Positions 8,248-47,996 of a stretch of 64,000 nt of DNA are shown here, in pieces. Source of the DNA: Candidatus Doudnabacteria bacterium (GTDB taxonomy: Bacteria > Patescibacteriota > Doudnabacteria > UBA920); assembly GCA_963837465.1 (NCBI GenBank), contig CAWINB010000004.1, forward strand, positions 330,853 through 394,852. Direction: 5' to 3'. Position 1 is the first letter of the stretch. Every line of letters begins with the position of its first letter. A model generated the notes under the pieces. The model saw only the letters and a program-made list of their open reading frames with translations. It was not told the origin of the DNA and did not search any database. The position numbers and the translations under genes were made by a program.

Positions 8248-8480
8248 GTTTAAAAGTTATGAATGAAGGACTGCTTCCTGTTTCAAAAATAGGCGCGCTA
8301 TGCATAGCTATTTTTGGATTACTTCTGATGTATGTAAGTAAATATTTTGAACGGATGCCCATTTTTTTAGCCGCCAGTTTAATTATTGGATTCTTATTGT
8401 TTTTCCAGATATTTTTATCCTCTTTATATAAAACTCTCAAAATCAAAAACAGGTATTTAATTTGGTTTGAGATAAAGTAA
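8244..8480 (+). CDS. Small hypothetical membrane protein
   Basis: 78-aa ORF with two hydrophobic helices. Its start overlaps the ymdB stop (ATGA). Confidence 0.3.
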   Translation: MSLKVMNEGLLPVSKIGALCIAIFGLLLMYVSKYFERMPIFLAASLIIGFLLFFQIFLSSLYKTLKIKNRYLIWFEIK

Positions 8481-8484
8481 CATT

Positions 8485-8853
8485 ATGGCTCCAAAATTCT
8501 TAAACGCATCTTTGTTCATCCTTTTTGGATCCCAAAACAAAGGCCATGCCGGCGCGGCTTCCGATTTTGATATCGGCATATTGGCGGATGAGCCTTTGAC
8601 CTTTGAACAAAAAAGCAAATTAAGCGAAGAAATTGCCAAGGAGTTTGGTTTTGCGGAAGATAAAATTGACCTTGTGGACTTAAATGAGGCTTCGCCTTTG
8701 CTGCAAATGGAGGCCGCTAAAAGCGGAAAGCTCCTTAAAGGAAAAGAATCGGATTTTTTTAAATTTAAACTTTTGGCGTGGAAACGTTACCAGCACACCG
8801 CGAAATTCAGAAGAATGAGAAAAGAGCACTTACAGCAAATATATGGGCAATGA
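8485..8853 (+). CDS. MNT-type nucleotidyltransferase (type VII TA antitoxin)
   Basis: GSQNKGHAGAASDFDIGIL nucleotidyltransferase motif (GS...D.D). Overlaps the downstream DUF86 gene. Confidence 0.75.
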   Translation: MAPKFLNASLFILFGSQNKGHAGAASDFDIGILADEPLTFEQKSKLSEEIAKEFGFAEDKIDLVDLNEASPLLQMEAAKSGKLLKGKESDFFKFKLLAWKRYQHTAKFRRMRKEHLQQIYGQ

Positions 8854-9265
8854 AATTGTGGAAAAAAAATCCGAACAAATCCATTCTCTTATTGAAGAGT
8901 TAAAAGAGTGGACAGCGGTGGATTTTGGGACTTTTGACGGGACCGTGACTTTAGTGCGGGCTTGTGAAAGGAATTTGGAATTGTTAGTTGAGCTGGCCAG
9001 CGATATAAATGCCAGTATCATTTTGGAAAAACAGGGCAAGACCCCCGATAGCTACAAAGATTCTTTCCAATGGCTTCAAAAATTGGGTATAATAGGTGAA
9101 GATCTTTGCAAAAAACTCATAGATTCGGTAAAATTACGCAACGGCTTGGTGCATGAATATGAATTTGAACTTAATAACAGAAAATTTTACGATTCCATAA
9201 AGAATGATTTTATTCCCGCTTACCAAGAGTATTTAAAGTCAGTAGTCAAAAGCACCGCAAAGTAA
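8843..9265 (+). CDS. HepT/DUF86 toxin
   Basis: R-x4-H-x-Y motif (RNGLVHEY). 140 aa, overlapping the MNT gene by 11 nt. Confidence 0.75.
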   Translation: MGNEIVEKKSEQIHSLIEELKEWTAVDFGTFDGTVTLVRACERNLELLVELASDINASIILEKQGKTPDSYKDSFQWLQKLGIIGEDLCKKLIDSVKLRNGLVHEYEFELNNRKFYDSIKNDFIPAYQEYLKSVVKSTAK

Positions 9266-9294
9266 TTTACACTAATTTTCTCTCAGAAAATTAT

Positions 9295-9825
9295 ATGCCC
9301 TCAAGATTTTTAAATCCAAGCGAGGTGGTGGCGCAGACCGGCCTGATGCAGGGGCAGGTTGTGGCGGACATGGGTTGCGGCAACGGTTTTTATGTATTGC
9401 CGGCCGCGCAGATGGTTGGGCCCACGGGCACGATTATTGCCGTGGATGTTATGGAACAAAAATTGGCTGCTACCATTTCCATAGCCAACCAGTTCGGTTA
9501 CAAAAACGTGCGCGTTTTGCAGGCGGATTTGGCCAAACCGCTTTTGGATATTCCGGAAAATTATTGCGACCTGGTCATTATCGGCAATATCTTTCACGAA
9601 ATCAGCCAGAAGGACCAGCTGATAAGAAATATTTACCGGATTTTAAAATCCCAGGGCCGCGTGGTGATAGTGGAATGGAAAAAAACCGCCACGCCTTTTG
9701 GGCCACCGCTGGACAAGCGCGTGGATCAGGAGAAAATGGAAATAATGCTTATGGAGGCGGGACTGCGCAAGGACAAAGATTTGCAGGCCGACGGGTATCA
9801 TTACGCGGTGTTGTTTGAAAAATAA
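9295..9825 (+). CDS. Class I SAM-dependent methyltransferase
   Basis: VADMGCGNGFY (motif I), IIAVDV, LKSQGRVVIVEW. Confidence 0.7.
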   Translation: MPSRFLNPSEVVAQTGLMQGQVVADMGCGNGFYVLPAAQMVGPTGTIIAVDVMEQKLAATISIANQFGYKNVRVLQADLAKPLLDIPENYCDLVIIGNIFHEISQKDQLIRNIYRILKSQGRVVIVEWKKTATPFGPPLDKRVDQEKMEIMLMEAGLRKDKDLQADGYHYAVLFEK

Positions 9826-9907
9826 TCTACAGAGTTGGCGCATTAACCGCGCTACAGAAGCCTACAGAACCTGGTGGCCCTGATTGTTTCTGTAGTTTTC
9901 TGTAGAT
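9825..9907. repeat. Composite palindromic intergenic element built from CTACAGA units
   Basis: atctacaga (9825-9833), ctacagaag, ctacagaac, then the inverted ttctgtag and tctgtagat (9899-9907). Followed by tataat at 9911-9916. Confidence 0.6.
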
Positions 9908-9934
9908 TAGTATAATGAGTAATTCTATAGTTTT

Positions 9935-10333
9935 ATGAATTTAAAATCATATTTTAACTCCCAATACCTTTTTCAGATTAATTCCGCCTTTATCAGCCCT
10001 GGCGAGAAGCTTTTTTTTCTGCTGGGCGTGATTTTGCTTTTGGTCGCCGTGGTCCTGAAAATATCAGCCAAGCTTGCGCCTACCCCCGTGGACTCCGGTT
10101 ACCGCAAAAAGTTTTACGTGCTGTTGCTGACCATCGGCCTGCTGGAAATTTTTTGGTACCTGCTGCGTTACGAGAACGTGGAGTTTTTTGGCAGCCGTTT
10201 TACGGCTTTCTTGTTCCTGTTCATCGGCCTGGTCTGGCTTCTGCGCGTTTTGCTGTCGATGTTAAAAAATTACCGACCGGCTAAAGTTGCCTGGGAAAAA
10301 GAACAGGTCAGGATGAAGTATTTGCCCAAATGA
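9935..10333 (+). CDS. Hypothetical membrane protein
   Basis: 132-aa ORF with three or four hydrophobic helices. Confidence 0.4.
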   Translation: MNLKSYFNSQYLFQINSAFISPGEKLFFLLGVILLLVAVVLKISAKLAPTPVDSGYRKKFYVLLLTIGLLEIFWYLLRYENVEFFGSRFTAFLFLFIGLVWLLRVLLSMLKNYRPAKVAWEKEQVRMKYLPK

Positions 10334-10360
10334 CAAAAATAAAAAGACAAATGTTTATCC

Positions 10361-10780
10361 ATGTTCAATCTTTTTAAACCAACAATCAGGAAACCAAAAT
10401 CTTTGGGTCAGCTGGGTGAACAGTTCGCCCAGGAAGAATATAAAAAGCTCGGTTATAAAATTATCGCGGCCAACGAGTACAATAAAAAAGGCAAACAACT
10501 TGGAGAGATAGATTTCATCGCCAAAAATAACGAATCCATAATATTTGTGGAGGTTAAGACCCGTAAAGATCGCCTGGGTAAATTTGGCACGGGCGCCGAA
10601 GCGGTTGATGTTTACAAACAGCGGAAACTGCTGGCAGCGGTAAAAATGTACTTTTTGCGCAATCCGGCAATGTCCGAACTTAAGCCCCGGATTGATGTTT
10701 GTCTTATGGAATTCGGCGAGCTTGACAAAAGCTTTAAACCTGCTAAAATAATAACGAATGCAGTAGAAGATTGGAACTGA
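10361..10780 (+). CDS. yraN: YraN-family (UPF0102) endonuclease-like protein
   Basis: GEQFAQEEYKKLGYKIIAANEY...GEIDFIAKNNESIIFVEVKTR fits the YraN pattern. Confidence 0.8.
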   Translation: MFNLFKPTIRKPKSLGQLGEQFAQEEYKKLGYKIIAANEYNKKGKQLGEIDFIAKNNESIIFVEVKTRKDRLGKFGTGAEAVDVYKQRKLLAAVKMYFLRNPAMSELKPRIDVCLMEFGELDKSFKPAKIITNAVEDWN

Positions 10781-10826
10781 CTGACGAGCGATGCTCGTCA
10801 TTTTAATTAGTAAGCCGCTGAAAAGA

Positions 10827-10893
10827 CGCTGATAGGTACGCTGAATAAACGCTGAACCGGCGTTTCAGCGACAAATCAGCGTACCTATCAGCG
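10827..10893. repeat. Composite palindromic intergenic element built from CGCTGA units
   Basis: Perfect 18-bp outer stem, cgctgataggtacgctga (10827-10844) / tcagcgtacctatcagcg (10876-10893), enclosing an inner cgctgaa/ttcagcg stem. Extra cgctga copies lie upstream. Confidence 0.65.
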
Positions 10894-10912
10894 ATAAATT
10901 AGCGCTTTAAAT

Positions 10913-12130
10913 ATGAATGAGCAACTAGAACAAGCTTTGGATCAGATTGCCGAAGAAAAAGGCATTAGCCGCGAGGATTTAATTTCTATGATAGAGGCGT
11001 CTTTGGCCGCGGCCTTCCGCAAGGATTACGGTGAAAAAGACCAGAATATCGTGGTGGAATTTAACCCCGAAACAATGGGCGCCAAGGTTTTTGACGTTAA
11101 AACCGTGGTGGAAACCCCAACCGAAGCCGAGGAAGACCCGCAAAAATTAATTGATTTGGAAGCGGCAAAACAAATCAAAAAATCCTATAAAGTGGGTGAC
11201 GAAATTAAAACCGAAATCACGCCAAAAACCGGCACCTCTTACGGCCGCATTGCGGCACAGACCGCCAAACAGGTAATCATTCAAAAGCTCCGCGAGGCTG
11301 AACGCAACGTCCAGTTTTCCGACTTTAAATCCAAAGAGCGCACTCTGCAAAACGGTATTGTGCAAAGAGTGGAAGGCGATACCGTGCTGGTGGATTTGGG
11401 CAAGGCCGCCGGAGTGCTGTTTCCCAGCGAGCAAATCCGCGGCGAGCGTTACGCCATTGGTCAGCGGGTAAAAGTTTTAATCCTCCATGTCGAACCGGCC
11501 ACCAAGGGCCCTAAAATTACCCTGTCCCGCTCGCATCCGGATATGGTCCGCAAGCTGTTTGAGCTGGAAGTGCCGGAAATTTATAACGGCAGCGTGGAAA
11601 TAAAAGCCATTGCCCGCGAGGCGGGATCCCGTTCCAAAGTGGCGGTAATTTCCACCCAGGACGGCATTGATCCCATAGGCAGTTGCGTAGGGCAAAAAGG
11701 CAGCCGCGTGCAAACCGTAATGGCCGAACTCGGCGGCGAGAAAATAGATATTATAGAATTTTCAGACGACACCGTAAAATTTATCGCCAACGCGCTTTCC
11801 CCGGCCAAAATTTTAAATGTTCAGCTGGATGAAGACAAAAAAGAAGCCAAAGTCGGCGTTTTGGAAGACCAGTTATCCCTTGCCATCGGCAAAGCCGGAC
11901 AAAACGTGCGGTTGGCCGCGCGGTTGACCGGATGGAAGATTGATATCAATGGGGAAAAATTGGCCGGAGATGCGGCATCAGAACCTGCTGCTGAAGGCGA
12001 AGAAGCAGAAACCGTTGCCCCCGAAACATCAGCCACGGAAGAAGCTCAAACCGACGCCGGCGGAGTAAGCGAAGGTACTTTGCAGGAAGCGGAGAACCCC
12101 GAAAAGCAGATGGAAGAAAAGGGAGAATAA
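10913..12130 (+). CDS. nusA: Transcription termination/antitermination factor NusA
   Basis: N-terminal NusA domain, S1 domain (GIVQRVEGDTVLVDLG), two KH domains (GSCVGQKGSRVQ, LAIGKAGQNVRLA) and an acidic tail. Confidence 0.95.
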   Translation: MNEQLEQALDQIAEEKGISREDLISMIEASLAAAFRKDYGEKDQNIVVEFNPETMGAKVFDVKTVVETPTEAEEDPQKLIDLEAAKQIKKSYKVGDEIKTEITPKTGTSYGRIAAQTAKQVIIQKLREAERNVQFSDFKSKERTLQNGIVQRVEGDTVLVDLGKAAGVLFPSEQIRGERYAIGQRVKVLILHVEPATKGPKITLSRSHPDMVRKLFELEVPEIYNGSVEIKAIAREAGSRSKVAVISTQDGIDPIGSCVGQKGSRVQTVMAELGGEKIDIIEFSDDTVKFIANALSPAKILNVQLDEDKKEAKVGVLEDQLSLAIGKAGQNVRLAARLTGWKIDINGEKLAGDAASEPAAEGEEAETVAPETSATEEAQTDAGGVSEGTLQEAENPEKQMEEKGE

Positions 12131-14173: not shown

Positions 14174-15578
14174 ACATGGCCCCTATCCGCCAGCGGCCAT
14201 TTTTTGATGTTCCTTAAGTTTAATGTTTTTAAATACTGCTGACTTTGCTTCCTGCATAAGTTTTGCCCATCCGTTATGGCTGTGGCCGGTGCTGATGTCA
14301 TCCAGTTGTTTTTCCGTCCGTCCTGGGGCAAGGTAGCGTGTCCAATTATCCAGAGTCTTCAGTTTGGCATAGGGAGTTAAGTAAATATCATATTTTTTCT
14401 TTTCCTTGCCCTTATGGTCAACCGTGGTGGTGGCAAAGCCGCAGGGTCTGTGGAAGTTCAGGTAAGGGTTAAAAAACTTCTGGTAAAATTCGTTAATCTC
14501 CTGCGCGTAGGTTTTCGGGATATGAGTGTAGCCCATATACTTTCTGATGACACTGCCGTTCTTGCTTTCCACTAAGGCATTGTCATTGCAGTGCCTGCTT
14601 CGTGATTTTGTCTGTTTAATAACTAACCTTCTAAGAATATCAGCTACCGTGTAATTAATGTTCTCGCTACCGTTGTCAGAGTGGAAGTTAATTACTGTAA
14701 AGGGAAACATTTGCTGCAACTGTTCAAATATGGGTTTTAAATGCAGCTCGGAAATCGTTTCCACACAGAAGACCATTTCCCATTGGGTGACTTCATCCAC
14801 CAGGTTTAAGTGGTAAATACCTTTCTCATACTTGCCCAAAGCCAGCTTACGGTCGCCCTGATGCACGGTATCCACCCGCAGATAGCCCGGAATGCCCATA
14901 TTGTCGGGTCTTCTTCTAATACCAATCGGGGTGCTTACTGGATCGGTTATGGTAAAGGTGGTGGAGTGGCTGGTGTAAATTCTTTTAACTCGCAGATTGT
15001 AGATATGGGAAACGGAAATATCTTTTAGTCTTTTAAACCGTTCGTCACCGAATATTTCATATTCAGCCATTAGGATCTGTTTGGTGGCATGGGCATTCAT
15101 TCGTTGGTGCAGATTATCGGTTTCAGCCAGCAATAGTATTTCTGCCGGGCCATAAACAGTAACAAACCGGTTTTTCTTGCCCCAATTCGGGGACAAGGCC
15201 ACTAACCCACTTCCTCTCTTGTTGGTAATCAGTCGTTTTAGCTGTCTGCCCGACATGCCGGTCATCCGTTGGATATATTCCTTAATCTGCCCCTTGTCTT
15301 TTTTGCCTTTAAGCCGGACATAGCCAAACTTGTTTAAGACGTTGTTAATCCATTCATATTTCTCCTTTCTGGAAACTGAGGTAAAATTAATTGCTGTATT
15401 GACCTTTAGAAATTCCTTGATTTGAGCTATGCTCGTAACGCTTAAGTCTGTCATATCGATTGTCATCAAGTCAGTGTGGCAGGCTTATGCTCTTTGTACA
15501 GCTTCCGGGCAACCCTCCGGTTTCAGCAATTGGGGTACCGTCCTCCTTTAGAGGCTGTCTCAAAGATAGGGGCCATGT
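14174..15578 (-). mobile_element. Insertion sequence encoding an rve-type DDE transposase, just upstream of the rRNA promoter
   Basis: 14-bp terminal inverted repeat, acatggcccctatc (14174-14187) / gataggggccatgt (15565-15578), bracketing a 428-aa transposase ORF. I saw no clear target duplication. Confidence 0.5.
14183..15469 (-). CDS. DDE (integrase-core, rve) transposase
   Basis: GYLRVDTVHQGD...GIYHLNLVDEVTQ...HSDNGSENIN...NDNALVESKNG is the DDE integrase-core pattern. The family (IS481 or ISNCY-like) cannot be settled by eye. Confidence 0.75.
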   Translation of the reverse strand: MMTIDMTDLSVTSIAQIKEFLKVNTAINFTSVSRKEKYEWINNVLNKFGYVRLKGKKDKGQIKEYIQRMTGMSGRQLKRLITNKRGSGLVALSPNWGKKNRFVTVYGPAEILLLAETDNLHQRMNAHATKQILMAEYEIFGDERFKRLKDISVSHIYNLRVKRIYTSHSTTFTITDPVSTPIGIRRRPDNMGIPGYLRVDTVHQGDRKLALGKYEKGIYHLNLVDEVTQWEMVFCVETISELHLKPIFEQLQQMFPFTVINFHSDNGSENINYTVADILRRLVIKQTKSRSRHCNDNALVESKNGSVIRKYMGYTHIPKTYAQEINEFYQKFFNPYLNFHRPCGFATTTVDHKGKEKKKYDIYLTPYAKLKTLDNWTRYLAPGRTEKQLDDISTGHSHNGWAKLMQEAKSAVFKNIKLKEHQKMAAGG

Positions 15579-15599: not shown

Positions 15600-15628
15600 T
15601 TGACACCTTTTTCCAAAAGGTTTATAAT
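15600..15628 (+). promoter_or_regulatory. Consensus sigma70-type promoter, probable rRNA promoter
   Basis: TTGACA (15600-15605), a 17-nt spacer, TATAAT (15623-15628). It starts 22 nt outside the IS end and lies about 670 nt upstream of the 16S. Confidence 0.5.
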
Positions 15629-16293
15629 TGCTTGGCGGTTAGGAATTAAATCTTAACGTTTAAAACTTCAATAAACTTTTAGTTCAATTTTGCTCTTATG
15701 TAAGCGGGCATCGCTGATTATAGGAGATCCCTATTGGCACCTGGGAGACTGGACATTATCCACATTTAAGATGGATATGTTTTTTTTAGCCTCAATTTTA
15801 GACCCTTCAGGATCAAATTATAGAGGCTAATCCGCCGAAGCCTTGGCGAAGGCTGGATAACTAAGTTTGATCGCCGATAAATCGGCACGCTACGCCAATC
15901 ATCTTGGTCAAAGCAAAGTACCTCAAAATGAGATGCTCCGCTCCGCTCAGGATGCGTTCCTACGGAACTGTACCTTAACAGTTAAATAGTGATTAGAAAA
16001 CACTGAATACCGCCCGGTATTTAGTGTGTACAAAACCATCGCGTCTTGACCTATTTAAACCAGGTTGAGATGCAATGTTTGCGTCAATTCAATATGAGTT
16101 CAATGATATTCTGTGAATAACAGAAAAATGTTTTGTTAGGTTTACATTTTACAAAAATAAATCTAACGCCAACTTAACATCAATATTTATATTCGTGTTA
16201 AGAGGTTTGTCTTTTAGACAGATCAAACTTTCAATTTTATTTCCGTCCCGCCAAAGGCTGGGACAATTCAGGATTTATAATTGATTTCTAATA

Positions 16294-17860
<1,567 letters not shown>

Positions 17861-17872
<12 letters not shown>

Positions 17873-18137
17873 AAGGAACTTTTCTTGACTACACTGGTTT
17901 TCGAACTGTGTGTCAAGACATTCTGTTGGTCGTCGTCAATTATTTCGATTTTTGACGCAATCCTTTCTCAATAAGAAACGACGTAAACGTAAGTGGTTTT
18001 GTATAGCGGTAATTCTACCCATATTTAGCAATAAATATGGGCCTGAGCGCCTTTAATGCTCGGGGTCACTATTTAGCCGTTAAAAAACGGAAATTGCAAT
18101 TAAAAAGCCTGACTTCTACTACTGAAGTGAGGCTTTT
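17861..18137 (+). other. 16S tail + trailer + terminator segment, copy S-A
   Basis: gtcactatttagccgttaa (18065-18083) pairs 18/19 with the leader ttaacagttaaatagtgat (15975-15993). tggttttgta (17994-18003) pairs with the leader tacaaaacca (16029-16038). Terminator hairpin at 18107-18137. Confidence 0.75.
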
Positions 18138-19121
18138 ATGTTTTATAAGGAAAGTGTCGTAGAAACATCTACGAAAACCGACAGTAGGGTTTTGCCATCG
18201 TCCCCGGCTGTTTACAGCCCAAAGATGAGCGAGTTGGTTGATGGGTTTTTAAAGCACGGTCAGTTTGATTTAAGCTGGTCGGCTGGGACAGTCGCAAAAT
18301 ACGGTGAGTGTTTACGGATGACTATTCGGGACATCGGCGATTTGCCGGTAAATGAAATCCGTTTGGTTCACCTTACGGAATTAAAATCTAAAATAATAAT
18401 GCGCGGAGCCGGAGAGTCCAGAGTCGGCTCAATGGTTTTTGCGTTAAAAAGTTTTTTAAAATACTGCAAGGAAATTGTGGAGTTGGATGTGCTGGACTTT
18501 AACAAGATTACCCCGCCAAAACGCCATCGCCGGGAAGTGCTGTTTTTGACCAACGAAGAAATTCAGCGGTTTGTGGATGTTATAAAAATAAAAAATACCT
18601 GGGATGGGAAAAATAAAAAGAGTTGCGTCCGAATGGATGGTCTAAGGTTCAGGGCTTTGGTAGAAGTCTTGCTTGGCAGCGGTATGAGAATATCCGAGGC
18701 GTTATCGCTTAACCGGGGTAGTATAAATTTTGAAAAGAAAGAGGCAAAAATTATCGGTAAAGGTAGCAAGGAACGCACGGTATTTTTTAACGATCGTTCG
18801 TTGGAATGGGTTAGGTATTTATTGGAAGAAAGGAAGGACAGTCACGAACCTTTATTTCTTTCCCAAAAAGGCAACAGGTGGGATAAGGGAGAAGTTAATA
18901 AACTGTTTCAGCGTTATACTAAAAAAGCGGAAATCACCAAAAAATTAACGCCCCATATTCTGCGGCATACTATGGCCACAAACTTACTTTTTAACGGTTG
19001 CCCGATTTCCCACGTCAAAGAAATTTTAGGCCATGATAGGCTGGAAACCACGTGCCGCTACTATCTGGGTTTGGACAAGAGTAAGGCCAAGGAGGCTCAC
19101 GAAAAATTCTTGAATTATTAA
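18138..19121 (+). CDS. Tyrosine recombinase/integrase, class A (copy 1)
   Basis: GMRISEALSL (R), HILRHTMATN (H-x-x-R), LGHDRLETTCRYY (H and Y). 327 aa. Paralogs at 34943 and 47997. Confidence 0.9.
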   Translation: MFYKESVVETSTKTDSRVLPSSPAVYSPKMSELVDGFLKHGQFDLSWSAGTVAKYGECLRMTIRDIGDLPVNEIRLVHLTELKSKIIMRGAGESRVGSMVFALKSFLKYCKEIVELDVLDFNKITPPKRHRREVLFLTNEEIQRFVDVIKIKNTWDGKNKKSCVRMDGLRFRALVEVLLGSGMRISEALSLNRGSINFEKKEAKIIGKGSKERTVFFNDRSLEWVRYLLEERKDSHEPLFLSQKGNRWDKGEVNKLFQRYTKKAEITKKLTPHILRHTMATNLLFNGCPISHVKEILGHDRLETTCRYYLGLDKSKAKEAHEKFLNY

Positions 19122-19159
19122 AAAAATTTATTGAATAAATAGCTCAATTTCGCTATAAT

Positions 19160-19365
19160 TAGAATAATTGAATAGGTGCCTAACCCCATGGCTAAAACTA
19201 TGGGTATGGTAGAAGTAAAGAATCCTCAGCTACGTAAAGACGGTCTCTTAACCGCTCTCGTAGCTGAGGTGCGTGCGAAAGCATGCGGTGGTGTCGAAAG
19301 GCACTGCTGCGGTTGGGAGGCCCTTTTTGTATCCAACCGCAATTTAAAAACCTCAGCTACAACAA
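19160..19365 (+). ncRNA. Candidate structured leader RNA upstream of the type III mod gene
   Basis: tataat at 19154-19159. 11-bp perfect stem cctcagctacg (19224-19234) / cgtagctgagg (19259-19269). Two adjacent GAAA-capped hairpins (cgtgc gaaa gcatg, gtgtc gaaa ggcac). gcggttgg/ccaaccgc stem. A second cctcagctac at 19351-19360, 5 nt before the ATG. Confidence 0.35.
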
Positions 19366-26425: not shown

Positions 26426-26502
26426 GGCAATTAGGTTGCTGCCTTGGGATCTGGTTTGCTCATAGAGGGGTTATCCTGAAACCGGGCAGCACCCTAATTG
26501 CC
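26426..26502. repeat. Long hairpin upstream of the 393-aa ORF
   Basis: ggcaattaggttgctgcc (26426-26443) pairs 17/18 with ggcagcaccctaattgcc (26485-26502). The loop is 41 nt. Confidence 0.6.
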
Positions 26503-26524
26503 TCTAAATAATCAAAATCCCTCT

Positions 26525-27703
26525 ATGATGATTGACAGTATACGTCTAAGAATTTCTATATTTAGTAGCGTGAAAAATAACTTCTTTTTTAGAGAAAAAA
26601 GAGGGAGCCTTGATTATGATAATAGTAATAGACAGAGGGTTAAACAATTTATACGAACCAATTTTAAGTGGAGCGAACAACAACGGTCTCAGGGTAAATA
26701 TATCCCAAAATATTGGACAGAAACCAACAGCTTTGAGGGCGGTAAACAGTATCTTATTTTTGAATTTTCAGTTCCAAAGTTCTTGCAGGGACATAATTTA
26801 GTCGAAATTGCAGAAACCATGCTGCCTGTCTTGGTGGATCGTCTCGAGGACTTCTGTAAAATAATTCAACTATCAGTTGCGGAGGTAGATATTTTGGGTG
26901 CGCAAGTCACGATGGTCGCATATTGTCATAATGTTCCGATAGCCCATCTGGCTCCTTCGCAAGAAGTTATGAAATTGTTATCTGGATATACCTATCGTTT
27001 TCGTTCTAAATTTCGGCCCGAGCAAAATGAATTGGGACAGATTACTCATTTACAACTCGGTAATAATACTTCCCATGTTACTGCTTATGATAAGTTGCCG
27101 GAGATTATAGTGCATGCCCGAACTACTGAGGAATTGGAAATTGCCAAAATAATTAAAAATAAACAGTTGCCAAATCCTTACGGAAAAATTATTCAAGACA
27201 CCATTAGGTTTGAGCTCACTTTACATAATACTGTGTCGGTAAGGCAAGCAATGAAAAAATTTTATGGTGACAAGCCTTTTTACACACTCAAGGATGTGTT
27301 CAAAGCCGATATTGCGGCGGCATTATTAAAGTTGGAAATGGAGGAAATTTATAATCACCCCCTTAAAAATATAGCTGCAAATTCTAATTATGACTTCCGA
27401 AAACTAAATGATGAGGTCGGTAAATTTATTCGAGACCGCCATCAGGACGGCAAACTGATTGGCTTGCTGGAACAGGCCACCCTTGTTCTACACGCCGGGG
27501 GCTGGGCGGCGGTCAGAACTTATTTAGCGAAAGGTTGTTGCCGCCGGACTTTGCAATACCGGATAGCTGAACTACGCGAAATAGAAAAAATTGGAATTAA
27601 TTTGGGAACGCCAAATGAAAAAATTATGGAATATATTTTAAACCAATTTGGCATTGGAAAAACTAATTTACTTCCTAAAGGCCAACAATTATTGTTTAGC
27701 TAA
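26525..27703 (+). CDS. Hypothetical protein (weak suspicion of a replication initiator)
   Basis: 392 aa. The N-terminus MMIDSIRLRI recalls the MIDW... start of gene II/X-type replication proteins. I could confirm no catalytic motif. Confidence 0.4.
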   Translation: MMIDSIRLRISIFSSVKNNFFFREKRGSLDYDNSNRQRVKQFIRTNFKWSEQQRSQGKYIPKYWTETNSFEGGKQYLIFEFSVPKFLQGHNLVEIAETMLPVLVDRLEDFCKIIQLSVAEVDILGAQVTMVAYCHNVPIAHLAPSQEVMKLLSGYTYRFRSKFRPEQNELGQITHLQLGNNTSHVTAYDKLPEIIVHARTTEELEIAKIIKNKQLPNPYGKIIQDTIRFELTLHNTVSVRQAMKKFYGDKPFYTLKDVFKADIAAALLKLEMEEIYNHPLKNIAANSNYDFRKLNDEVGKFIRDRHQDGKLIGLLEQATLVLHAGGWAAVRTYLAKGCCRRTLQYRIAELREIEKIGINLGTPNEKIMEYILNQFGIGKTNLLPKGQQLLFS

Positions 27704-27916
27704 TTTATATGCAACTGCCATGTTTATCTATAGCCAACAAAAACCATACAGTCTATGCGTCTTTTGTCTCCCTAAGTATTACGTCAATACACGTGCAATC
27801 TTTTGCACATTTTCACAGAGAATAATTGTGCAAGTTATAAAGCGCAGCTTAGGCAATATATGTGCAATCGCAAAAAGCCAAAATGTTACAAATCAATGAC
27901 TGAATAAAGTTGTCTC

Positions 27917-28885
27917 ATGAGCCAGTTTAACCAAAACCCAGATCCTAATTTTATACAGCAGCCATCTGCTCCGGTTTTAGGTTTGCCGGTCGTAAATACC
28001 CCACAGCTTTTGACCTTTGAACAGTTGATCCCGTTGTTTGGCGATTACGTCACTTACGATTTGAATCATAGTCCTAAGACATCCAAAAAGTATGTCGAGG
28101 GGTTAAGGCATATTTTGAAAGACCTACCCTTTATAGTTTACCCCCAAGACTTAACGTTGCCGCATATTACGGAACTGAAGAAAAAAGTGCAGTTGCGTGG
28201 CGCAAAAGAGTCCCGAGTTAATAGTCTACTATTCTCATTGCGAAAATTTTTAACCTATTGTAACGAAGTCTATAAACTGGTTACAATAAATCCAAAGGAA
28301 ATTAAAGTTATGCGATTACCAAAAAGGGAAGTGGTGTTTTTGGCTCCTGCCGAAATTGAGCAATTTTTAAGCGCAATGGATACAACAACTTTGCCGGGAT
28401 TACGAATACGGACGCTTGTAGAGGTGCTACTTTCCACTGCTATGCGAATTTCCGAAGCCCTGTCGGTCAGCCGTGGGGACATTGACTGGGAGGGCAAGGA
28501 AATTGTCATTATAGGGAAAGGCAATAAGCAGCGGACGGTATTTTTAAGCGATAGGGCAATCGGTTGGCTTCAAACCTATTTACTCCGGCGTAAGGATAAT
28601 GACCCTGCTTTGTTCGTAACCTTTGGCGAACCCAAACGCTTGTCGCCTTATGACTTGTCTAAGCAGTTTAAGCACTATGCTGAAAAAGCAGGATTAAAGA
28701 AAAAAGTAACACCCCATATTTTACGCCATACGGCCGCGACAACCATGTCCCATAACGGCGCGGACATTCGTAACATTCAGCTAATTTTAGGCCATAGCGA
28801 CATTAAAACAACCGCCAAATATTACTTAGGCGTGGACAAAGAGGCTTTAAAGGAAGCCCATAAAAAGTTTCTAAAATACGATTAG
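27917..28885 (+). CDS. Tyrosine recombinase/integrase, class B (copy 1)
   Basis: AMRISEALSV, HILRHTAATTM, LGHSDIKTTAKYY. Its closest paralogs are at 39633 and the fragment at 48956-49412. Confidence 0.9.
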   Translation: MSQFNQNPDPNFIQQPSAPVLGLPVVNTPQLLTFEQLIPLFGDYVTYDLNHSPKTSKKYVEGLRHILKDLPFIVYPQDLTLPHITELKKKVQLRGAKESRVNSLLFSLRKFLTYCNEVYKLVTINPKEIKVMRLPKREVVFLAPAEIEQFLSAMDTTTLPGLRIRTLVEVLLSTAMRISEALSVSRGDIDWEGKEIVIIGKGNKQRTVFLSDRAIGWLQTYLLRRKDNDPALFVTFGEPKRLSPYDLSKQFKHYAEKAGLKKKVTPHILRHTAATTMSHNGADIRNIQLILGHSDIKTTAKYYLGVDKEALKEAHKKFLKYD

Positions 28886-30662: not shown

Positions 30663-30673
30663 GGGGGGGGGGG
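30663..30673. repeat. G11 homopolymer between the avd and RT starts
   Basis: ttgggggggggggttg, counted as 11 G. Confidence 0.9.
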
Positions 30674-30703
30674 TTGTTAAAAGTCATTTTTATAAGTTTA
30701 ATT

Positions 30704-31717
30704 ATGAAAACGCAATTAAAAATAAGTTACGAGGAAATCATTTCACTCGAAAATTTGTTTGCCGCCTGGCAGGAGTTTTTGCCGGGCAAGAGAAAAAAGA
30801 AAGACGTGCAGGAATTTGGCCTTAGGCTTGCTGATAACATTTTACAGCTTCAGGAGGAACTTGCCAATTTTAGCTATATCCACGGCCCATACAAGGCCTT
30901 TAACATTTCTGACCCCAAGCCGAGGAATATCCATAAGGCAAGCGTTCGGGACAGAGTTTTACATCACGCCATTTACCGCAAACTATATCCGTTTTTCGAC
31001 AAAACTTTTATCGGCAGTTCGTATTCCTGCCGTTTGGACAAAGGAGTTCACAAGGCTTTGAATAAGTTTAGGGCATTGGCGTTTAAAGCAAGTAAAAATC
31101 ATACGCAAACAGCTTGGGTGCTCAAGTGTGATATTAAAAAGTTTTTCGCCAGCATTGACCATGCAAAACTGCTGAAAATTTTATCAGCTTACGTTCCCGA
31201 TAAAAATATTCTTTGGGTTTTAGAGCGAATTATTTATAGCTTTGATTATAAGGTAGCAGGCCGCGGCCTCCCGCTTGGCAACCTGACCTCCCAATTATTT
31301 TGCAACGTATATATGAACGAATTTGACCAATTCATAAAACACAAACTCAAGGCCAAATATTATATCCGTTATGCTGATGATTTTGTTTTTTTATCGGGTA
31401 GCAAGGACGAGCTAATATCCTTAGTTCCTAAAGTAGCCGAGTTTTTAGGAGAGGACTTAAAACTGTCTTTGCATCCGGATAAAGTTTTTATAAAGACCTT
31501 GGCCTCGGGCGTGGACTTCCTGGGCTGGGTGCATTTCCCTCATTACCGGGTTCTAAGAAAAAATACCGGCAGAAGAATGTTCAAACGAATTTACGGCCAT
31601 CCAACAAATGAAACATTCCAGTCATATTTAGGGTTAATGAGCCACGGAAATACTTACGGGCTTAAACAAAAATTGTTGAATTGGTATGGGTTACTTAAAA
31701 CAGCACAGCAGGAATAG
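30704..31717 (+). CDS. DGR-type reverse transcriptase
   Basis: RT motifs including LPLGNLTSQLFCNVYMNEFD (the DGR-typical GxxxSQ) and YADDFVF. 337 aa from the ATG at 30704. Confidence 0.9.
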   Translation: MKTQLKISYEEIISLENLFAAWQEFLPGKRKKKDVQEFGLRLADNILQLQEELANFSYIHGPYKAFNISDPKPRNIHKASVRDRVLHHAIYRKLYPFFDKTFIGSSYSCRLDKGVHKALNKFRALAFKASKNHTQTAWVLKCDIKKFFASIDHAKLLKILSAYVPDKNILWVLERIIYSFDYKVAGRGLPLGNLTSQLFCNVYMNEFDQFIKHKLKAKYYIRYADDFVFLSGSKDELISLVPKVAEFLGEDLKLSLHPDKVFIKTLASGVDFLGWVHFPHYRVLRKNTGRRMFKRIYGHPTNETFQSYLGLMSHGNTYGLKQKLLNWYGLLKTAQQE

Positions 31718-34587: not shown

Positions 34588-34662
34588 CAATTAAATTGAT
34601 CTTTTAAATTTTTAATACAGTAGTAGTTTGTCAGGCAATTTCCGTTTACAACGGCTCAGAAA
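34588..34662 (+). repeat. Right-end repeat R1, copy a
   Basis: Matches 51785-51858 except for a 1-nt indel. Ends ...gcaatttccgtttacaacggctcagaaa immediately before CACCTCC. Confidence 0.85.
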
Positions 34663-34679
34663 CACCTCCTTTCTAAGGA
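34663..34679 (+). repeat. att core copy 2 (cacctcctttctaagga)
   Basis: 17/17 identical to the 16S 3' tail at 17861-17877. Confidence 0.85.
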
Positions 34680-34942
34680 ATAAATATGCAGCCTTAAACT
34701 TTTCGAAGTTTATGTTGTTGCACATTCCAGTGGTCGTCATCTTCTATTTCGATAGAAGGTGCACATACTCTAACGATTGAACGTAAACGAACGGTTTTGT
34801 AAAAGGTAATTCTACCCTTATTTTCGCAAGATTATAAGGAGTCTCAACGCCTTAAATGTTGGGAGTCACTATTTAGCCGTTAAGGGAACTTAACGAAATT
34901 GCAAATAAAAGCCTCGTCATCAGCAATGATAACGAGGTTTTT
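34663..34942 (+). other. 16S tail + trailer + terminator segment, copy S-B
   Basis: Shares ggtcgtc, acgtaaacg, ggttttgta, ggtaattctaccc, gtcactatttagccgtta and gaaattgcaa with S-A. UUCG hairpins at 34696-34711 and 34741-34758. Terminator at 34912-34942. Confidence 0.75.
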
Positions 34943-35929
34943 ATGTATGAGGTTAATTCGGTAGAAAGAGTCGCAAAAGGTGGAATTGCGGCGACAGTCA
35001 GCCCCGCCGCTCCTATCGGCACAAAGATTAGCACTTTGGTGCCGCAATTCTTGGCTTATGGCCAGTATGACCTGTCCTTTGCCGCAGGCACCATAGAGAA
35101 ATACCGCGATAGCCTAAACGTCTTTATGCGGGACGTTGGGGATTTGCCCGTAGAGGAATTAAACTTTGGGCATTTTACTTTGCTGAAACAAAAAATTATG
35201 GAAAGGGGGTCGGGGGTCTCACGCATAGCGGGCGTGGTCTTTGCGATGAAAAGTATGTTAAAGTTTGCTACCGACGTATTGGAGATGCAGATTTTGGATT
35301 ATAAGAAAATCAGAGCGCCGAAGCGGCGCAGGCGGGACGTAGTTTATTTAACCAATGCCGAAATCCAGCAGTTCGTTGACAGCATAAAGTTTGAAAAATG
35401 CTGGACGGGCAATACCCGTAAAAAGGGCATCAGCGTCCACCGCCTGAGGTTTCGGACTTTGGTTGAAGTCTTGCTTGGCACGGGGATGCGTATAAGCGAA
35501 GCATTGTCGCTTACAAGGGATGTTATAAACTTTGAAAAAGGCGAGGCTAAGATAATCGGCAAAGGAAGCAAGGAGCGCACAGTGTTTTTTAACGAACGGG
35601 CTTTGTATTGGATTAAGTTTTATTTGGAACAGAGAAACGACGACAATCCCGTTATATTTTTAAACCGAAAAGGCAAGCCGCTGGACAGGGGCGATGCCGA
35701 TACTTTGTTTAAGCGTTACGCAGAAAGGTCAGGTATAACTAAAAAATTAACGCCGCACATTTTGCGGCACACGATGGCGACGAATCTGCTTTTTAACGGA
35801 TGCCCGATTGGCCATATTAAGGAAATCCTCGGACACGACCGATTAGAGACAACTTGTCGTTATTATTTGGGCTTAGACAAAGATAAAGCTAAAGAAGCCC
35901 ACGGCCAATTTTTAAATTACGAACAATAA
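34943..35929 (+). CDS. Tyrosine recombinase/integrase, class A (copy 2)
   Basis: GMRISEALSL, HILRHTMATNLLFNGCPI, LGHDRLETTCRYY. Confidence 0.9.
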   Translation: MYEVNSVERVAKGGIAATVSPAAPIGTKISTLVPQFLAYGQYDLSFAAGTIEKYRDSLNVFMRDVGDLPVEELNFGHFTLLKQKIMERGSGVSRIAGVVFAMKSMLKFATDVLEMQILDYKKIRAPKRRRRDVVYLTNAEIQQFVDSIKFEKCWTGNTRKKGISVHRLRFRTLVEVLLGTGMRISEALSLTRDVINFEKGEAKIIGKGSKERTVFFNERALYWIKFYLEQRNDDNPVIFLNRKGKPLDRGDADTLFKRYAERSGITKKLTPHILRHTMATNLLFNGCPIGHIKEILGHDRLETTCRYYLGLDKDKAKEAHGQFLNYEQ

Positions 35930-38582: not shown

Positions 38583-39614
38583 ATGCAAAATACAGCAGTA
38601 GCAACTATGAACCCGCCTATGCTGGCGGTTGCAGAAGACTTGTCGCCGATAGAAATTGTCTATTTGGCCACAAGCGAGATTCGGCCTGATAAAAATCAGC
38701 CCCGTAAATCTCTAGACAGTAAGAAAATTAAGGAAATGGCGGAAAGCATTAAGGCCGTTCGGGGGATTATAAATCCCATCGAAGTCGACCAAGACTATAT
38801 TATTGTTACGGGACAGCTCCGCTGGGAAGCCGCTAAGGTGGCGGGGTTAGAAAAAGTGCCGTGCAAAATAATAGAAATCAGCGATGAGGAGCGCTTCCGC
38901 AGGCAAGTAGTGGAAAACTTGCACCACAACGTGATGAGCGATATGGATATTGCTAAAGCATTTGCTAAGATGCTTAACATTCTACCTGGTAGCAGGTTGC
39001 AGGGAAAAGACGCTGGCCTTAGCCGCTTGGCTGAAGATATTGGTAAAAGCGTGGACTACATCAGCCAGCATTTAGACCGATTGGAAGACTCTGGGCGCAT
39101 TCAGGAAGCTTTGAGTTCGGGAAAAATTTCTTTTACCCACGCAAGAGAGACAAAGAAAGTTCCCGCTGGCTTCAGGGAAGCCGTAGAGAAAAAAATGCTG
39201 GCGGGCGAGTTTCCCCATAGCGGTTCCATAGCGGAATTGGCTAAAGGCTTAAAGAGGAATCCAGATAAAGCCGACCAAATTTTGGCATTTAATTTTACGG
39301 AGTTAAAGTCGCCTGAGGAAGTTAAACAGGCAGTATCCAAAATTGCATCTCCTGCGGCGGATGCTTCGGGGGCAGTAGAGGAATTCAATAGAATTATAAA
39401 TGGGCTTATGCACTGGCTTGAAAACACCCCGTCGTCCTATGCCGCTGAACACCCCGAATTGAAAATCAACCAAACGCTAACCAAGCTCGGCAAGGAGATT
39501 AAGAAATGGCTGAAAAATCTGAAAGAATTTCAGGCTCGAGCGGAAGTTAAGGGGCAGACGATGTTGGATATGGATATCCCCGAAATAACAGTAGATGATA
39601 TCCCCGAATTCTAA
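38583..39614 (+). CDS. ParB/Srx-like nuclease-domain protein
   Basis: IRPDKNQPRKSLDSKKIKEMAESIKAVRGIINPIEV...VTGQLRWEAAKVAGLEKVPCKI is the ParB N-terminal domain pattern. Confidence 0.75.
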   Translation: MQNTAVATMNPPMLAVAEDLSPIEIVYLATSEIRPDKNQPRKSLDSKKIKEMAESIKAVRGIINPIEVDQDYIIVTGQLRWEAAKVAGLEKVPCKIIEISDEERFRRQVVENLHHNVMSDMDIAKAFAKMLNILPGSRLQGKDAGLSRLAEDIGKSVDYISQHLDRLEDSGRIQEALSSGKISFTHARETKKVPAGFREAVEKKMLAGEFPHSGSIAELAKGLKRNPDKADQILAFNFTELKSPEEVKQAVSKIASPAADASGAVEEFNRIINGLMHWLENTPSSYAAEHPELKINQTLTKLGKEIKKWLKNLKEFQARAEVKGQTMLDMDIPEITVDDIPEF

Positions 39615-39632
39615 AATTAAAGACATAACCAT

Positions 39633-40682
39633 ATGAACAATATGACAACCTTCACTAAACAGTGGACTTCCAATAGGCCTAGAATTTTCGGGGTCTTTGG
39701 GAAAACCCAGCAGGATGACACATTTGAAATTTTAATTCCAAAATTTCTTGACTACGCCCAATTTGATTTGAAACTGGCCAAAGAGACCATCGGAAAATAC
39801 AAAGAATCTTTGGGTTGGGTGACAAGGTATCTGCCCGACGTGGAACGCCCCGCCCAAATGACGCTGGAAGATGTTACCCGAATTAAAAAGCAGGTGGCAA
39901 TGCGTGGCAATAGCGAGGCTCGGACTAACTCCATTATCTTCGCCTTGCGGAAGTTTTTGGACTATTGCGGCAAGCGGATGCAGATTGAAACCATTGACCC
40001 AAAGACCATAGAGCCGCTGAAAATCCCCAAGCGGGAAGTTATCTACCTTAACAAGGACGAGATAAAAAATCTGCGTGATGTATTTGACTTAGCCAACAAG
40101 CGGGAGTTCCGAATGCGGGTGCTGGTGGAATTTCTGCTCGGCACGGGAATGAGAATCTCTGAAGCGCTATCGGTCAATCGTGAGCAGATTAATTATGACA
40201 GCAAGGAAATAAAAATTGTCGGCAAGGGCAACAAGGAGCGCACAGTTTTTGTTTCCGATGATGCCTTAGGCTGGATAAAAAGGTATCTGGATACCCGCAC
40301 GGATGACAATCCTGCTGTCTTTATAACCTTTGGCGAGCAAGAAAGGTTAAGGCGGGGCGACTTGGCAGAATTATTAAGAGGTTATGGAATAAAAGCGGGG
40401 CTACAGAAGAAAGTTACGCCGCATATCTTGAGACACTCATCGGCAACCACGATGATGCGGAAAGGCTGTCCTCTGCCTTACATCCAGCAGTTGCTCGGCC
40501 ACGCCGACATTAAAACGACCGCCAAATATTATCTTGGCGTTGATAAACAATCCGTCAAAGATGCTCACGAAAAATATCTTAAGTTCGACCACCACCGTTT
40601 GGGAATGGCGGCACCTGTGCGTAAAGGTATTGACTTGGATAGCTACCTTGAGTATTTCTCGGCCTATCTTCCGAAAGAGTAG
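39633..40682 (+). CDS. Tyrosine recombinase/integrase, class B (copy 2)
   Basis: GMRISEALSV, HILRHSSATTM, LGHADIKTTAKYY. Has a ~30-aa C-terminal extension. Confidence 0.9.
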   Translation: MNNMTTFTKQWTSNRPRIFGVFGKTQQDDTFEILIPKFLDYAQFDLKLAKETIGKYKESLGWVTRYLPDVERPAQMTLEDVTRIKKQVAMRGNSEARTNSIIFALRKFLDYCGKRMQIETIDPKTIEPLKIPKREVIYLNKDEIKNLRDVFDLANKREFRMRVLVEFLLGTGMRISEALSVNREQINYDSKEIKIVGKGNKERTVFVSDDALGWIKRYLDTRTDDNPAVFITFGEQERLRRGDLAELLRGYGIKAGLQKKVTPHILRHSSATTMMRKGCPLPYIQQLLGHADIKTTAKYYLGVDKQSVKDAHEKYLKFDHHRLGMAAPVRKGIDLDSYLEYFSAYLPKE

Positions 40683-46049: not shown

Positions 46050-46056
46050 CACCTCC
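46050..46056 (+). repeat. att core copy 3 (cacctcc followed by atacggctaca)
   Basis: Heptamer preceded by ...cggattaaa and followed by the short left-end type. Confidence 0.6.
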
Positions 46057-46124
46057 ATACGGCTACAACTTCCTCACTTAGCAAAAATCGCCCAAAAGGC
46101 GGTTTTTTTTGTTATAATTTAACT

Positions 46125-47486: not shown

Positions 47487-47497
47487 GGGATTATGGC

Positions 47498-47720
47498 CAG
47501 TTTAGTTTTTGTATAAGAATCTATTAAAACTAAATCGGCTTTAAACAATAGTGGGCGGTAGTGGGGGTAAACTTTGGAGGGGATAACTTTGTTGCTAAAA
47601 AATTTTACTGCCGCTAACATCCGAGTAGCAATTTAAAAATTAAATATCATCGCTGTAAGCGAGCTTGAAAATAAATAGTGGGAGCGAGTGGGGGTGAACA
47701 ACTTTACACCTCGGATTAAA
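47498..47720 (+). repeat. Right-end repeat R2, copy b
   Basis: See 45834-46049. Contains ataaatagtggg (leader-like) and ends ...ttacacctcggattaaa. Confidence 0.8.
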
Positions 47721-47737
47721 CACCTCCTTTCTAAGGA
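47721..47737 (+). repeat. att core copy 4 (cacctcctttctaagga)
   Basis: 17/17 identical to the 16S 3' tail. Confidence 0.85.
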
Positions 47738-47996
47738 ACAATATGCACCCTTTTCCCTTTTCGAAGGGGAATGTTGGTTCACATTCCGTAGGTCGTCGTT
47801 AATTTTTTCGAAAATTAGCGCACTTCTTGAAACTTCAAAGAACGACGTAAACTGGTGGTTTTGTAACGGTAATTCTACCGTATTTAGCAATAAATACGGC
47901 CTAAGCGCCATTAATGCTTGGGATCACTATTTAGCCGTTAAAGGTTAAACACGAAATTGCAAAGAAAGTCTCGGCCGTTATGGTGCGAGGCTTTTT
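47721..47996 (+). other. 16S tail + trailer + terminator segment, copy S-C
   Basis: UUCG hairpins at 47754-47769 and 47800-47817. ggttttgta, ggtaattctacc and atcactatttagccgttaa are conserved. Terminator at 47967-47996. Confidence 0.75.

Follow-up and report, generated by a model that had tools for sequence, protein, structure and literature searches.

A 64,000-nucleotide stretch of a Candidatus Doudnabacteria contig (CAWINB010000004.1, positions 330,853 to 394,852; hereafter the window) contains three open reading frames (ORFs) for Xer-like tyrosine recombinases, and each of them (ATG at 18138, 34943 and 47997) begins right behind a hairpin composed of an A-tract, a stem and a U-run. We consider it likely that this hairpin is the Rho-independent terminator of a monocistronic 16S rRNA precursor (pre-16S), and that it is part of a module borne by elements of the Candidate Phyla Radiation (CPR) that insert at the end of the 16S gene and restore the flank of that gene. 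The hairpin would be an ordinary kind of object, an intrinsic terminator, in a setting that appears undescribed. The hairpins and the integrase genes are located as follows; labels of the form L005 denote related loci outside the window.

18103-18137, + strand: predicted terminator hairpin 1, with A-tract, 11-bp stem with one mismatch and U4; 5' arm AGCCTGACTTC at 18106-18116, loop TACTACT, 3' arm GAAGTGAGGCT at 18124-18134
18138-19121, + strand: integrase A1, Xer-like tyrosine recombinase of 327 aa (PF00589, 9.6e-40)
34905-34944, + strand: predicted terminator hairpin 2, stem 34912-34937 lengthened by A-U pairs; minimum free energy (MFE) -20.1 kcal/mol, z -6.8
34943-35929, + strand: integrase A2, 328 aa (PF00589)
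47963-47996, + strand: predicted terminator hairpin 3, MFE -16.8 kcal/mol, z -3.7
47997-48968, + strand: integrase A3, 323 aa, 88% identical at the DNA level to the copy in L005

Hairpin 1 has an RNA MFE of -18.5 kcal/mol (z -5.2), and a better or equal fold was obtained in 0 of 200 dinucleotide shuffles for each of the three hairpins. The frequency of the MFE structure in the ensemble is 0.70, 0.67 and 0.16 for copies 1, 2 and 3, respectively. All three stems are imperfect, with 11-15 bp, loops of 4-7 nt and 4-5 T after the stem, and the transcripts read U4-U5 followed by AUGUU(U/C); in copy 2, the A-U extension pairs the A and U of the start codon itself. Such a hairpin touches an ATG start only at these three among the 53 ORFs of the window. 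The motif GAGG lies at 18129-18132 in copy 1 (ATG 5 nt further, at 18138), at 34934-34937 in copy 2 (followed by TTTTT and ATG 34943) and at 47987-47990 in copy 3 (followed by CTTTTT and ATG 47997), corresponding to gaps of 5, 5 and 6 nt. An earlier, sequence-only reading of the window had described this layout of hairpin, T-run and ATG in all three copies, with coordinates that were right to within one base, and the folds confirm it. It had also pointed out a GAGG inside the stem, 5-6 nt before the ATG, as the sole motif resembling a Shine-Dalgarno (SD) sequence; indeed, a scan of the 22 nt before each of the three ATGs found no other GGAG, GAGG or AGGA.

Judged from its conservation, the hairpin-adjacent ATG is the true start of the integrase. 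The N-terminal motif M-[FLY]-x-E/K-x-S/T-V/L-E is kept in about 40 homologues, starting at the annotated Met, and the ratio of synonymous to non-synonymous differences between A3 and the L005 copy is 3:1 in the first 34 codons and 92:10 in the remainder. A start near codon 30 was considered and rejected, as the Met at this position is not conserved, being ATT in copy 2 and Ile in many homologues.

The window contains one 16S gene and no 23S gene according to Rfam, and ARAGORN detected no tRNA within the 64 kb. The transcription unit of this gene and the three copies of its 3' flank comprise the following features.

15600-15628, + strand: rRNA promoter, a perfect TTGACA-17-TATAAT (12/12 matches)
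15635-16286, + strand: 16S leader, with trailer-complementary boxes at 15677-15691, 15975-15993, 16028-16039 and 16075-16085; the box at 15975-15993 is boxA-like (CCTTAACAG)
16287-17878, + strand: 16S rRNA gene (Rfam RF00177, 1274.6 bits over 16287-17870)
17861-17878, + strand: putative attachment (att) core copy 1, the 16S 3' tail CACCTCCTTTCTAAGGAA, anti-SD included
17879-18102, + strand: trailer 1, the predicted 3' half of the pre-16S processing stem, borne by element 1
34663-34680, + strand: putative att core copy 2, a CACCTCCTTTCTAAGGAA repeat at the junction of element 1 and element 2
34681-34904, + strand: trailer 2, a conserved repeat complementary to the leader
47721-47738, + strand: putative att core copy 3, a CACCTCCTTTCTAAGGAA repeat
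47739-47962, + strand: trailer 3, 95% identical to the trailer beside the L005 16S gene

The 16S gene fits the full Rfam model (positions 1-1533) and has thus been left intact. At 1584 nt against the 1533 positions of the model it holds extra sequence, and the 16S gene of L005 contains a group I intron (L005 2071-2566). The 18-nt tail occurs exactly three times in the window, whereas 0.1 occurrences are expected. Behind each copy of the tail come some 225 conserved nucleotides, then the hairpin and the integrase. Tail, trailer and hairpin make up a module of about 280 nt, and the integrase ATG is found 260-280 nt past the core. One of the three modules resides on the 16S gene, and the other two lie inside a 42-kb array of co-oriented mobile elements. 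As a correction to the earlier reading, only copy 1 is directly behind the strong rRNA promoter; copies 2 and 3 lie 17 and 30 kb downstream in the array.

The blocks conserved among the trailers coincide with those that are complementary to the 16S leader. Four such pairs were identified.

Trailer block GTCACTATTTAGCCGTTAA: leader partner 15975-15993, 18-21 bp
Trailer block GGTTTTGTA: leader partner 16028-16039, 9-12 bp
Trailer block GACGTAAAC: leader partner 16075-16089, 9-13 bp
Trailer block GAAATTGCAA, just 5' of the hairpin: leader partner 15677-15692, about 50 nt past the promoter, 8-15 bp

Because of this pairing, the pre-16S RNA would close over its whole length, up to the hairpin, into the long stem typical of rRNA precursors. 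The same pairing was observed in L005, L009 and L008, three relatives in which the leader is retained, and L008 uses completely different sequences to form helices of 25 and 15 bp, which amounts to covariation between leader and trailer. The last leader-trailer helix stops 1-5 nt ahead of the hairpin, and no helix competing with the hairpin appeared in leader-trailer cofolds. By its position, then, the hairpin sits exactly where the pre-16S transcript should end. The leader box that pairs with the trailer holds a boxA-like sequence (GCTCTTTAACA in L005, 1305-1328; CCTTAACAG in the window, 15972-15993), its likeness being judged against the boxA consensus of the Escherichia coli rrn operons; such an antitermination box would become sequestered once the trailer has been transcribed.

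The location of the hairpin at the very end of the leader-trailer helix is also what one would expect if it were an element of RNA stability or processing, either a 3' cap shielding the pre-16S from exonucleases or, once RNase III has cut the leader-trailer stem, a cap at the 5' end of the integrase mRNA, and strong stems are common at the ends of processed RNAs. However, a cap needs neither an A-tract before the stem nor a U-run after it, and this signature of intrinsic termination was present in all 17 distinct hairpins described below. We therefore regard a role as a cap as rather improbable as the main explanation, although the two roles are not mutually exclusive.

A terminator as the constant feature is borne out by the related loci. 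Among CPR genomes and metagenomes, a hairpin of A-tract, stem and U-run ends 0-12 nt before the ATG in 19 of 19 integrases linked to a 16S tail. These 19 loci contain 17 distinct hairpins of 11-24 bp and -9.4 to -34 kcal/mol with unrelated stem sequences, all of them with an A-tract before and a U-run after the stem; distant homologues have U5-U7 tracts. The stems were compared with a stem-anchored pair table, as RNAalifold on a MAFFT alignment of nine hairpin regions gave no structure, the 5' arms being out of register. The sequence-only reading had suggested checking homologous elements for the geometry of hairpin and ATG, which is thus kept even where the stems are unrelated. The integrase follows a real 16S gene in L001, L002, L004, L005, L008, L009, L081 and L082. 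In eight further loci (L003, L007, L083, L084, L086 and L097-L099), only the 18-19-nt tail precedes the module, with unrelated DNA before the tail, like window copies 2 and 3. Many contigs start 250-300 nt ahead of the integrase, the point at which the 16S gene causes assemblies to break.

No such hairpin was found at the two class B integrases of the window (27917 and 39633) or at about 20 metagenome homologues located away from a 16S tail. An exception is the group of L088, L089, L092, L095 and L096 (at about 2870-2910), whose sister integrases are 46-47% identical and have their ATG 2 nt past a conserved hairpin of another kind, AACGGTCAC...GTGACCGTT, that lacks a U-run. Upstream of these integrases, neither a 16S gene nor a tRNA nor any Rfam match was detected, and the group may target another site with a similar layout. 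In the distant clade of L010, L108 and L110, the trailer likewise ends in a terminator-like hairpin, and other ORFs lie between the hairpin and the integrase. L007 has an orphan trailer, truncated at its 5' end, that retains the hairpin and TTTTTATG, but a stop codon comes after five codons and there is no integrase. Across these loci, the constant feature appears to be a trailer ending in a terminator, and direct contact with the integrase start seems to characterise one large sub-family.

The enzymes themselves form a coherent family. The integrase ORFs match PF00589 with E-values of 1e-39 to 1e-40, and the catalytic columns R, K, H-x-x-R, H and Y are invariant. A1-A3 are 59-63% identical to each other and about 41% to the two class B copies. 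Their best family and structure matches are XerA, XerC and XerD, with archaeal XerA as the closest solved relative, and the architecture is of the two-domain type, with no arm-binding domain. The NCBIfam scores remain below the equivalog cut-offs for XerA (176.7/220 bits), XerC (158.2/335 bits) and XerD (145.3/330 bits); by these scores, the enzyme is Xer-like and not an orthologue of XerA, XerC or XerD. Homologues came solely from CPR/Patescibacteria, namely Doudnabacteria, Colwellbacteria, Moraniibacteria and metagenome-assembled genomes labelled Saccharibacteria. The best identity in phage and plasmid collections was below 31%, and a profile search of IMG/VR with the integrase returned nothing above 40% identity. 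Among the structures, chain 14 of PDB 9i5v, a Porphyromonas gingivalis ribosome, is a protein of 401 residues labelled RaiA of which residues 68-280 match the tyrosine recombinase family (E 2.9e-19). The RaiA protein of 9i5v is given as 400 aa, with 34 residues modelled (PMC12123416). The chain may be a recombinase-RaiA fusion or reflect a naming issue.

The clearest example is an element in one relative, L187, which shows both of its borders. Behind host genes (NusA, ClpP and others) come the 16S gene (8322-9789), the integrase (10001-10966), some small ORFs and a LOOT RNA. The tail recurs at 14696, with host genes again beyond it. The element of 4.9 kb is bracketed by 190-nt repeats (9777-9966 and 14693-14882, 99.5% identical) that comprise the tail and the trailer up to the A-tract. 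The proximal repeat is followed by the hairpin GAACCTTTTTTCT...AGAAGAAAGGTTTTT (-21.3 kcal/mol), in which an A-U extension pairs bases of the AUG, and by the integrase ATG; this hairpin comes on top of the 17 compared above. The distal repeat is followed by CACCC-ATTA-GGGTG and T7, with no ORF behind. Since different hairpins follow the two repeats, the host 16S trailer would end in its own terminator, which the element displaces, supplying another.

This arrangement suggests how the elements may behave. Site-specific recombination would place them in the final ~18 nt of the 16S gene, so that the trailer and terminator of the host come to lie at the distal end of the inserted element. With these displaced, the element would have to bring a working replacement to keep the 16S rRNA of the cell functional. 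Successive insertions could have built the 42-kb array. Element 3 and the element beside the L005 16S gene are 95% identical in the trailer, 88% in the integrase and 87% in the next 440 nt, whereas the 16S genes of L005 and the window are only 85-87% identical, in keeping with a mobile element. The counterpart of element 3 is the first element of the array in L005, and element 3 is the third in the window.

The hairpin is an inverted repeat within about 280 bp of the core and adjoins the integrase gene, and it could in principle act as DNA, with the attachment site including it as a cruciform or as a sequence bound by the recombinase. Stems of unrelated sequence in which pairing is kept point instead to selection on structure rather than on a protein-binding sequence. 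Moreover, the att repeat of L187 stops just before the hairpin, and the two-domain Xer-like enzyme lacks an arm-binding domain. A function of the repeat as DNA is accordingly the most far-fetched of the explanations weighed here.

The array extends from 17861 to about 59947 (42 kb), with nearly all genes co-oriented with the 16S gene. In an alignment of 13 junctions, identity to the 16S gene starts exactly at CACCTCC, the anti-SD, which comprises the only bases common to all junction types. From this we infer that strand exchange takes place inside the heptamer. Two variant junctions and the distal core were found in addition to the three cores.

46050-46056, + strand: variant junction CACCTCC/ATACGGCTACA, opening an integrase-less unit that ends at core 3; right-end repeats D5/D9
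51859-51865, + strand: variant junction CACCTCC/CTCCGGCTACA; just before it, 76 nt of the right end of element 1 are repeated exactly
59936-59947, + strand: distal core CACCTCCTTTCT, probable end of the array; host genes from 60018

The variant junctions (46050-46069 and 51859-51878) have only CACCTCC in common with the 16S tail, followed by NNN-CGGCTACA, and each opens a unit with neither trailer nor integrase. The first of these units (46057-47720) contains a HopA1-like ORF, and the usual right end closes it. Such integrase-less units may be satellites mobilised in trans. A 76-nt repeat (34594-34669 and 51790-51865, 100% identical) forms the right ends of elements 1 and 3 and stops exactly at CACCTCC, which points to recent recombination or a shared end module. 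In the region 59885-59947, AAACTAAATAGTGAC lies about 40 nt upstream of the distal core and resembles the 16S leader box at 15983-15993, and the right end of L187 has CAAATAGTGAA directly ahead of the core; the right ends of the elements may mimic the leader.

Expression of the integrase would depend on the hairpin, which shows the full set of intrinsic-terminator features in its sequence and lies where the pre-16S trailer ends. The sequence-only reading had raised an independent integrase promoter as something to look for; a promoter scan between the 16S tail and the ATG found no sigma-70-like promoter in any copy. Integrase mRNA would consequently come only from transcripts that pass the hairpin. 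As the first gene behind the module, the integrase has its AUG in the U-rich termination zone, and codon 2, mostly Phe, Leu or Tyr, prolongs the U-tract. The terminator would double as an attenuator that keeps the integrase low behind the rRNA promoter. The integrase of element 1 would be made by leakage from this promoter, and the internal integrases by read-through from co-oriented cargo upstream. The previous proposal, that the terminator insulates the integrase from the rRNA promoter, is supported in part, as it agrees with the terminator features and the lack of an intervening promoter. What has to be recast is the purpose implied, as the terminator is native to the 16S unit and not there for the integrase, the host copy in L187 having no ORF. 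If the hairpin serves primarily to terminate the 16S transcript, a function that the element reproduces with a hairpin of its own, the integrase is insulated as a consequence. Hairpin 2 also scores as a terminator on the minus strand; the A-tract would make the hairpin bidirectional and might shield the 16S gene from antisense transcription arising in the element.

A promoter of the integrase might still be hidden in the hairpin, with the -35 box TTGCAA in the last trailer block, a -10-like hexamer in the loop and a start in the 3' arm, giving a short leader devoid of the stem. The spacing is suitable in TTGCAA-17-TACTAC of copy 1, TTGCAA-16-TATGGT of copy 3 and TTTACA-16-AATACT of L001. Yet none of these passes the promoter scan, a credible -10 box is missing in copy 2, L003, L004 and all distant homologues, and TTGCAA is already accounted for by its pairing with the leader (CAATTTTG). 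We consider a hidden promoter quite improbable. A leaderless start of the integrase was also considered and rejected, as positions -12 to -7 read GAGGCT and there is no -10 box.

The GAGG in the stem invites another interpretation, in which the hairpin is chiefly a translational operator that buries the SD sequence of the integrase, and the integrase is made only when the stem opens. GAGG, AAGG, AGGG or GGGG is found 3-5 nt before the ATG in the window and the closest relatives, with predicted anti-SD duplexes of -4.9 to -12.5 kcal/mol. The 5' arm (GCCUC) looks like an anti-SD, and the 3' arm CGAGGCU is kept as the 5' arm drifts to G-U pairs. SD-led initiation is not the norm here, however. 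GGAG, GAGG or AGGA at -16 to -7 precedes 6 of 50 window ORFs compared with a background of 6.3%, and the anti-SD duplex energies of the other ATG ORFs do not exceed those of random 22-mers (median -2.3 vs -2.9 kcal/mol; 18% vs 23% at or below -5), so that the other window genes have no SD signal above random. Many genes have TATAAT-like hexamers 6-8 nt before the ATG (e.g. at 46125, 57679 and 61446), which suggests that leaderless mRNAs or mRNAs with very short leaders are widespread in this organism. The distance between purine block and ATG, 3-5 nt for the window copies and their nearest relatives, is 8-12 nt in L082-L098, and the block is reduced to GAGC in L084 and GGGC in L098. Terminator stems are usually C-rich in the 5' arm and G-rich in the 3' arm, and the 3' arm seems more conserved because C-to-U drift in the 5' arm is tolerated as G-U pairs; both traits are expected in any terminator stem. 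Furthermore, the orphan trailer hairpin of L007 has no integrase, the host terminator of L187 serves no ORF, and neither an alternative structure nor a trigger was seen. We therefore judge a dedicated SD operator unlikely, and the idea of the sequence-only reading that the stem sequesters an SD sequence weakens in view of the missing SD signal at other genes and the 8-12-nt spacing in distant homologues. Most likely, the GAGG is there simply because the stem is. A brake on translation that needs no SD sequence is plausible: a stem of -17 kcal/mol within the ribosome footprint, 0-5 nt from the AUG, would hinder 30S loading, and the terminator would probably impede ribosomes in this manner as well.

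Several points weigh against the reading of the hairpin as a pre-16S terminator borne by 16S-end elements. The sequences directly show the anatomy and its conservation, the pairing of leader and trailer, the att repeats and an element that is present in a divergent host as well; termination itself and expression by read-through are, like the translational brake, steps that we infer from the anatomy. The U-run before the AUG has only 4-5 nt in the window, so that the terminators may be leaky or weak, and the host terminator behind the distal repeat of L187 is only modest (-10.9 kcal/mol, z -1.65). Genomic and metagenomic searches, including IMG/VR, recovered neither an unoccupied site nor a circular junction. 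The distal core at 59936 is a tail without the displaced trailer (TTCGCAC... comes next), for which a later deletion must be invoked. Two of the searches merit a comment. Homologues of the LCP-family gene (LytR_cpsA_psr) at 60018, used to look for an empty site, led to three long contigs with no 16S, tail or trailer within 10 kb, and because synteny is not kept there this result is uninformative. The only match to the pattern AACACCTCCTTTCTAAGGA of a free-circle junction came from an unrelated phage, where it is the complement of an SD sequence.

The nearest known counterparts are the islands and prophages at the 3' ends of tRNA and tmRNA genes. As in those systems, a tyrosine integrase lies by the 3' end of the target, an element-borne copy restores the gene, the element lies between direct repeats, several elements can line up in tandem at a single site, and defence and addiction genes are carried as cargo. 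Here, the target is instead the 16S 3' tail including the anti-SD, the restored part reaches as far as the leader-pairing trailer and the terminator, and the enzyme is a short Xer-like one. No rRNA gene is among the targets named in a large survey of integration sites, where "rRNA" appears only for rimO, a protein-coding gene (PMC7192596). We found no published account of integrases targeting the 16S end in the literature searched, and a description elsewhere is possible.

The elements also recall the Xer recombinases (XerC/D and archaeal XerA) and the integrating elements that depend on them, sharing the two-domain architecture and intact catalytic residues. The enzymes described here differ in being far below the equivalog cut-offs, present in multiple copies and element-borne, with one enzyme for each element, beside the 16S gene rather than dif. 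Operons of rRNA genes end in intrinsic terminators, such as T1/T2 of E. coli rrnB. The hairpins resemble them in having a GC-containing stem and a U-tract that close a highly transcribed unit of stable RNA, but they stand after the 16S gene alone, are supplied by a mobile element and overlap the start of a protein gene. Attenuating or ribosome-binding-site-sequestering leader hairpins likewise place a stable stem with the sole SD-like sequence directly before a start codon. In the present case no alternative fold, ligand or leader peptide was seen, the stem is the terminator of the upstream RNA gene, and use of an SD sequence is not detectable. Lastly, the eukaryotic elements of rDNA, the R1/R2 retrotransposons and Pokey, are also specialised on one conserved site of an rRNA gene. 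Those elements knock out the copy into which they insert and depend on rDNA being present in many copies, whereas the bacterial elements here repair the gene, of which the window has one.

Among the cargo of the array are two restriction-modification systems, the toxins BrnT and AbiEii, a reverse transcriptase, a Rep protein of the filamentous-phage type, ParB and transposases. In the regions 26498-28885 and 38583-40682, the class B integrases are directly behind a filamentous-phage-type replication protein (Phage_CRI) and behind a ParB homologue, and these loci look like separate plasmid- or phage-like elements nested in elements 1 and 2. The reverse transcriptase ORF (RVT_1, 30663-31717) is preceded by a run of 11 G, and its counterpart region in L007 is cut exactly where the truncated 16S trailer starts. 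An rve-type transposase (14183-15469, - strand) lies just upstream of the rRNA promoter and has thousands of close metagenome copies; two more transposases inside the array (49209-50210 and 53171-54139) comprise one of the Mutator family and one with HTH_21 and rve. The LOOT RNA (RF03000) recurs in the elements and was found in the window at 689-802 and 19177-19305 (+ strand), in L004 (2549-2669), L008 (7404-7518), L081 (2680-2801), L186 (1266-1395) and L187 (13494-13611). In element 1 and L186, it stands directly behind the integrase and ahead of a DNA methylase gene, and a TTGAAT-17-TATAAT promoter (19131-19159) precedes the LOOT RNA of element 1. The 10-mer CCTCAGCTAC occurs within the LOOT motif (19224-19233) and once more at 19351-19360, with the ATG of the methylase 6 nt further. 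Since 19260-19269 is complementary to either copy, there may be an alternative pairing by which the methylase is controlled.

Homing to the 16S end would extend the rule of tRNA and tmRNA islands to a far more constrained target, which needs a processing flank matched to the leader as well as a terminator. CPR bacteria are known for single-copy rRNA genes, consistent with the one 16S gene in the window, and an element thus cannot afford damage to it. There are practical consequences as well. Assembly breaks at the 16S gene explain why integrases are found 250-300 nt from contig ends, and displaced or element-borne tails at array junctions could yield apparent variants of the 16S end. The 42-kb site is a hotspot of defence genes that makes up about 5% of an 868-kb contig carrying two of these integrases and the flanking LCP-family gene. 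Taken jointly, these observations might be explained by a CPR-wide Xer-like family that crosses over at the CACCTCC anti-SD heptamer of the 16S end, whose elements carry a working tail, a leader-matched RNase III half-stem and a terminator. The integrase would be made only by terminator leak, so that mobility would track rRNA synthesis and the growth state of the host, and the integrase-less units (46050 and 51859) would be mobilised in trans, the 16S end serving as a cassette-like capture site for defence genes. As a whole, this combined scheme is a tentative possibility. If it is true that leakage through the terminator from the rRNA promoter sets the integrase output, the activity of a mobile element would be linked to the growth rate of its host, and this link is directly testable.

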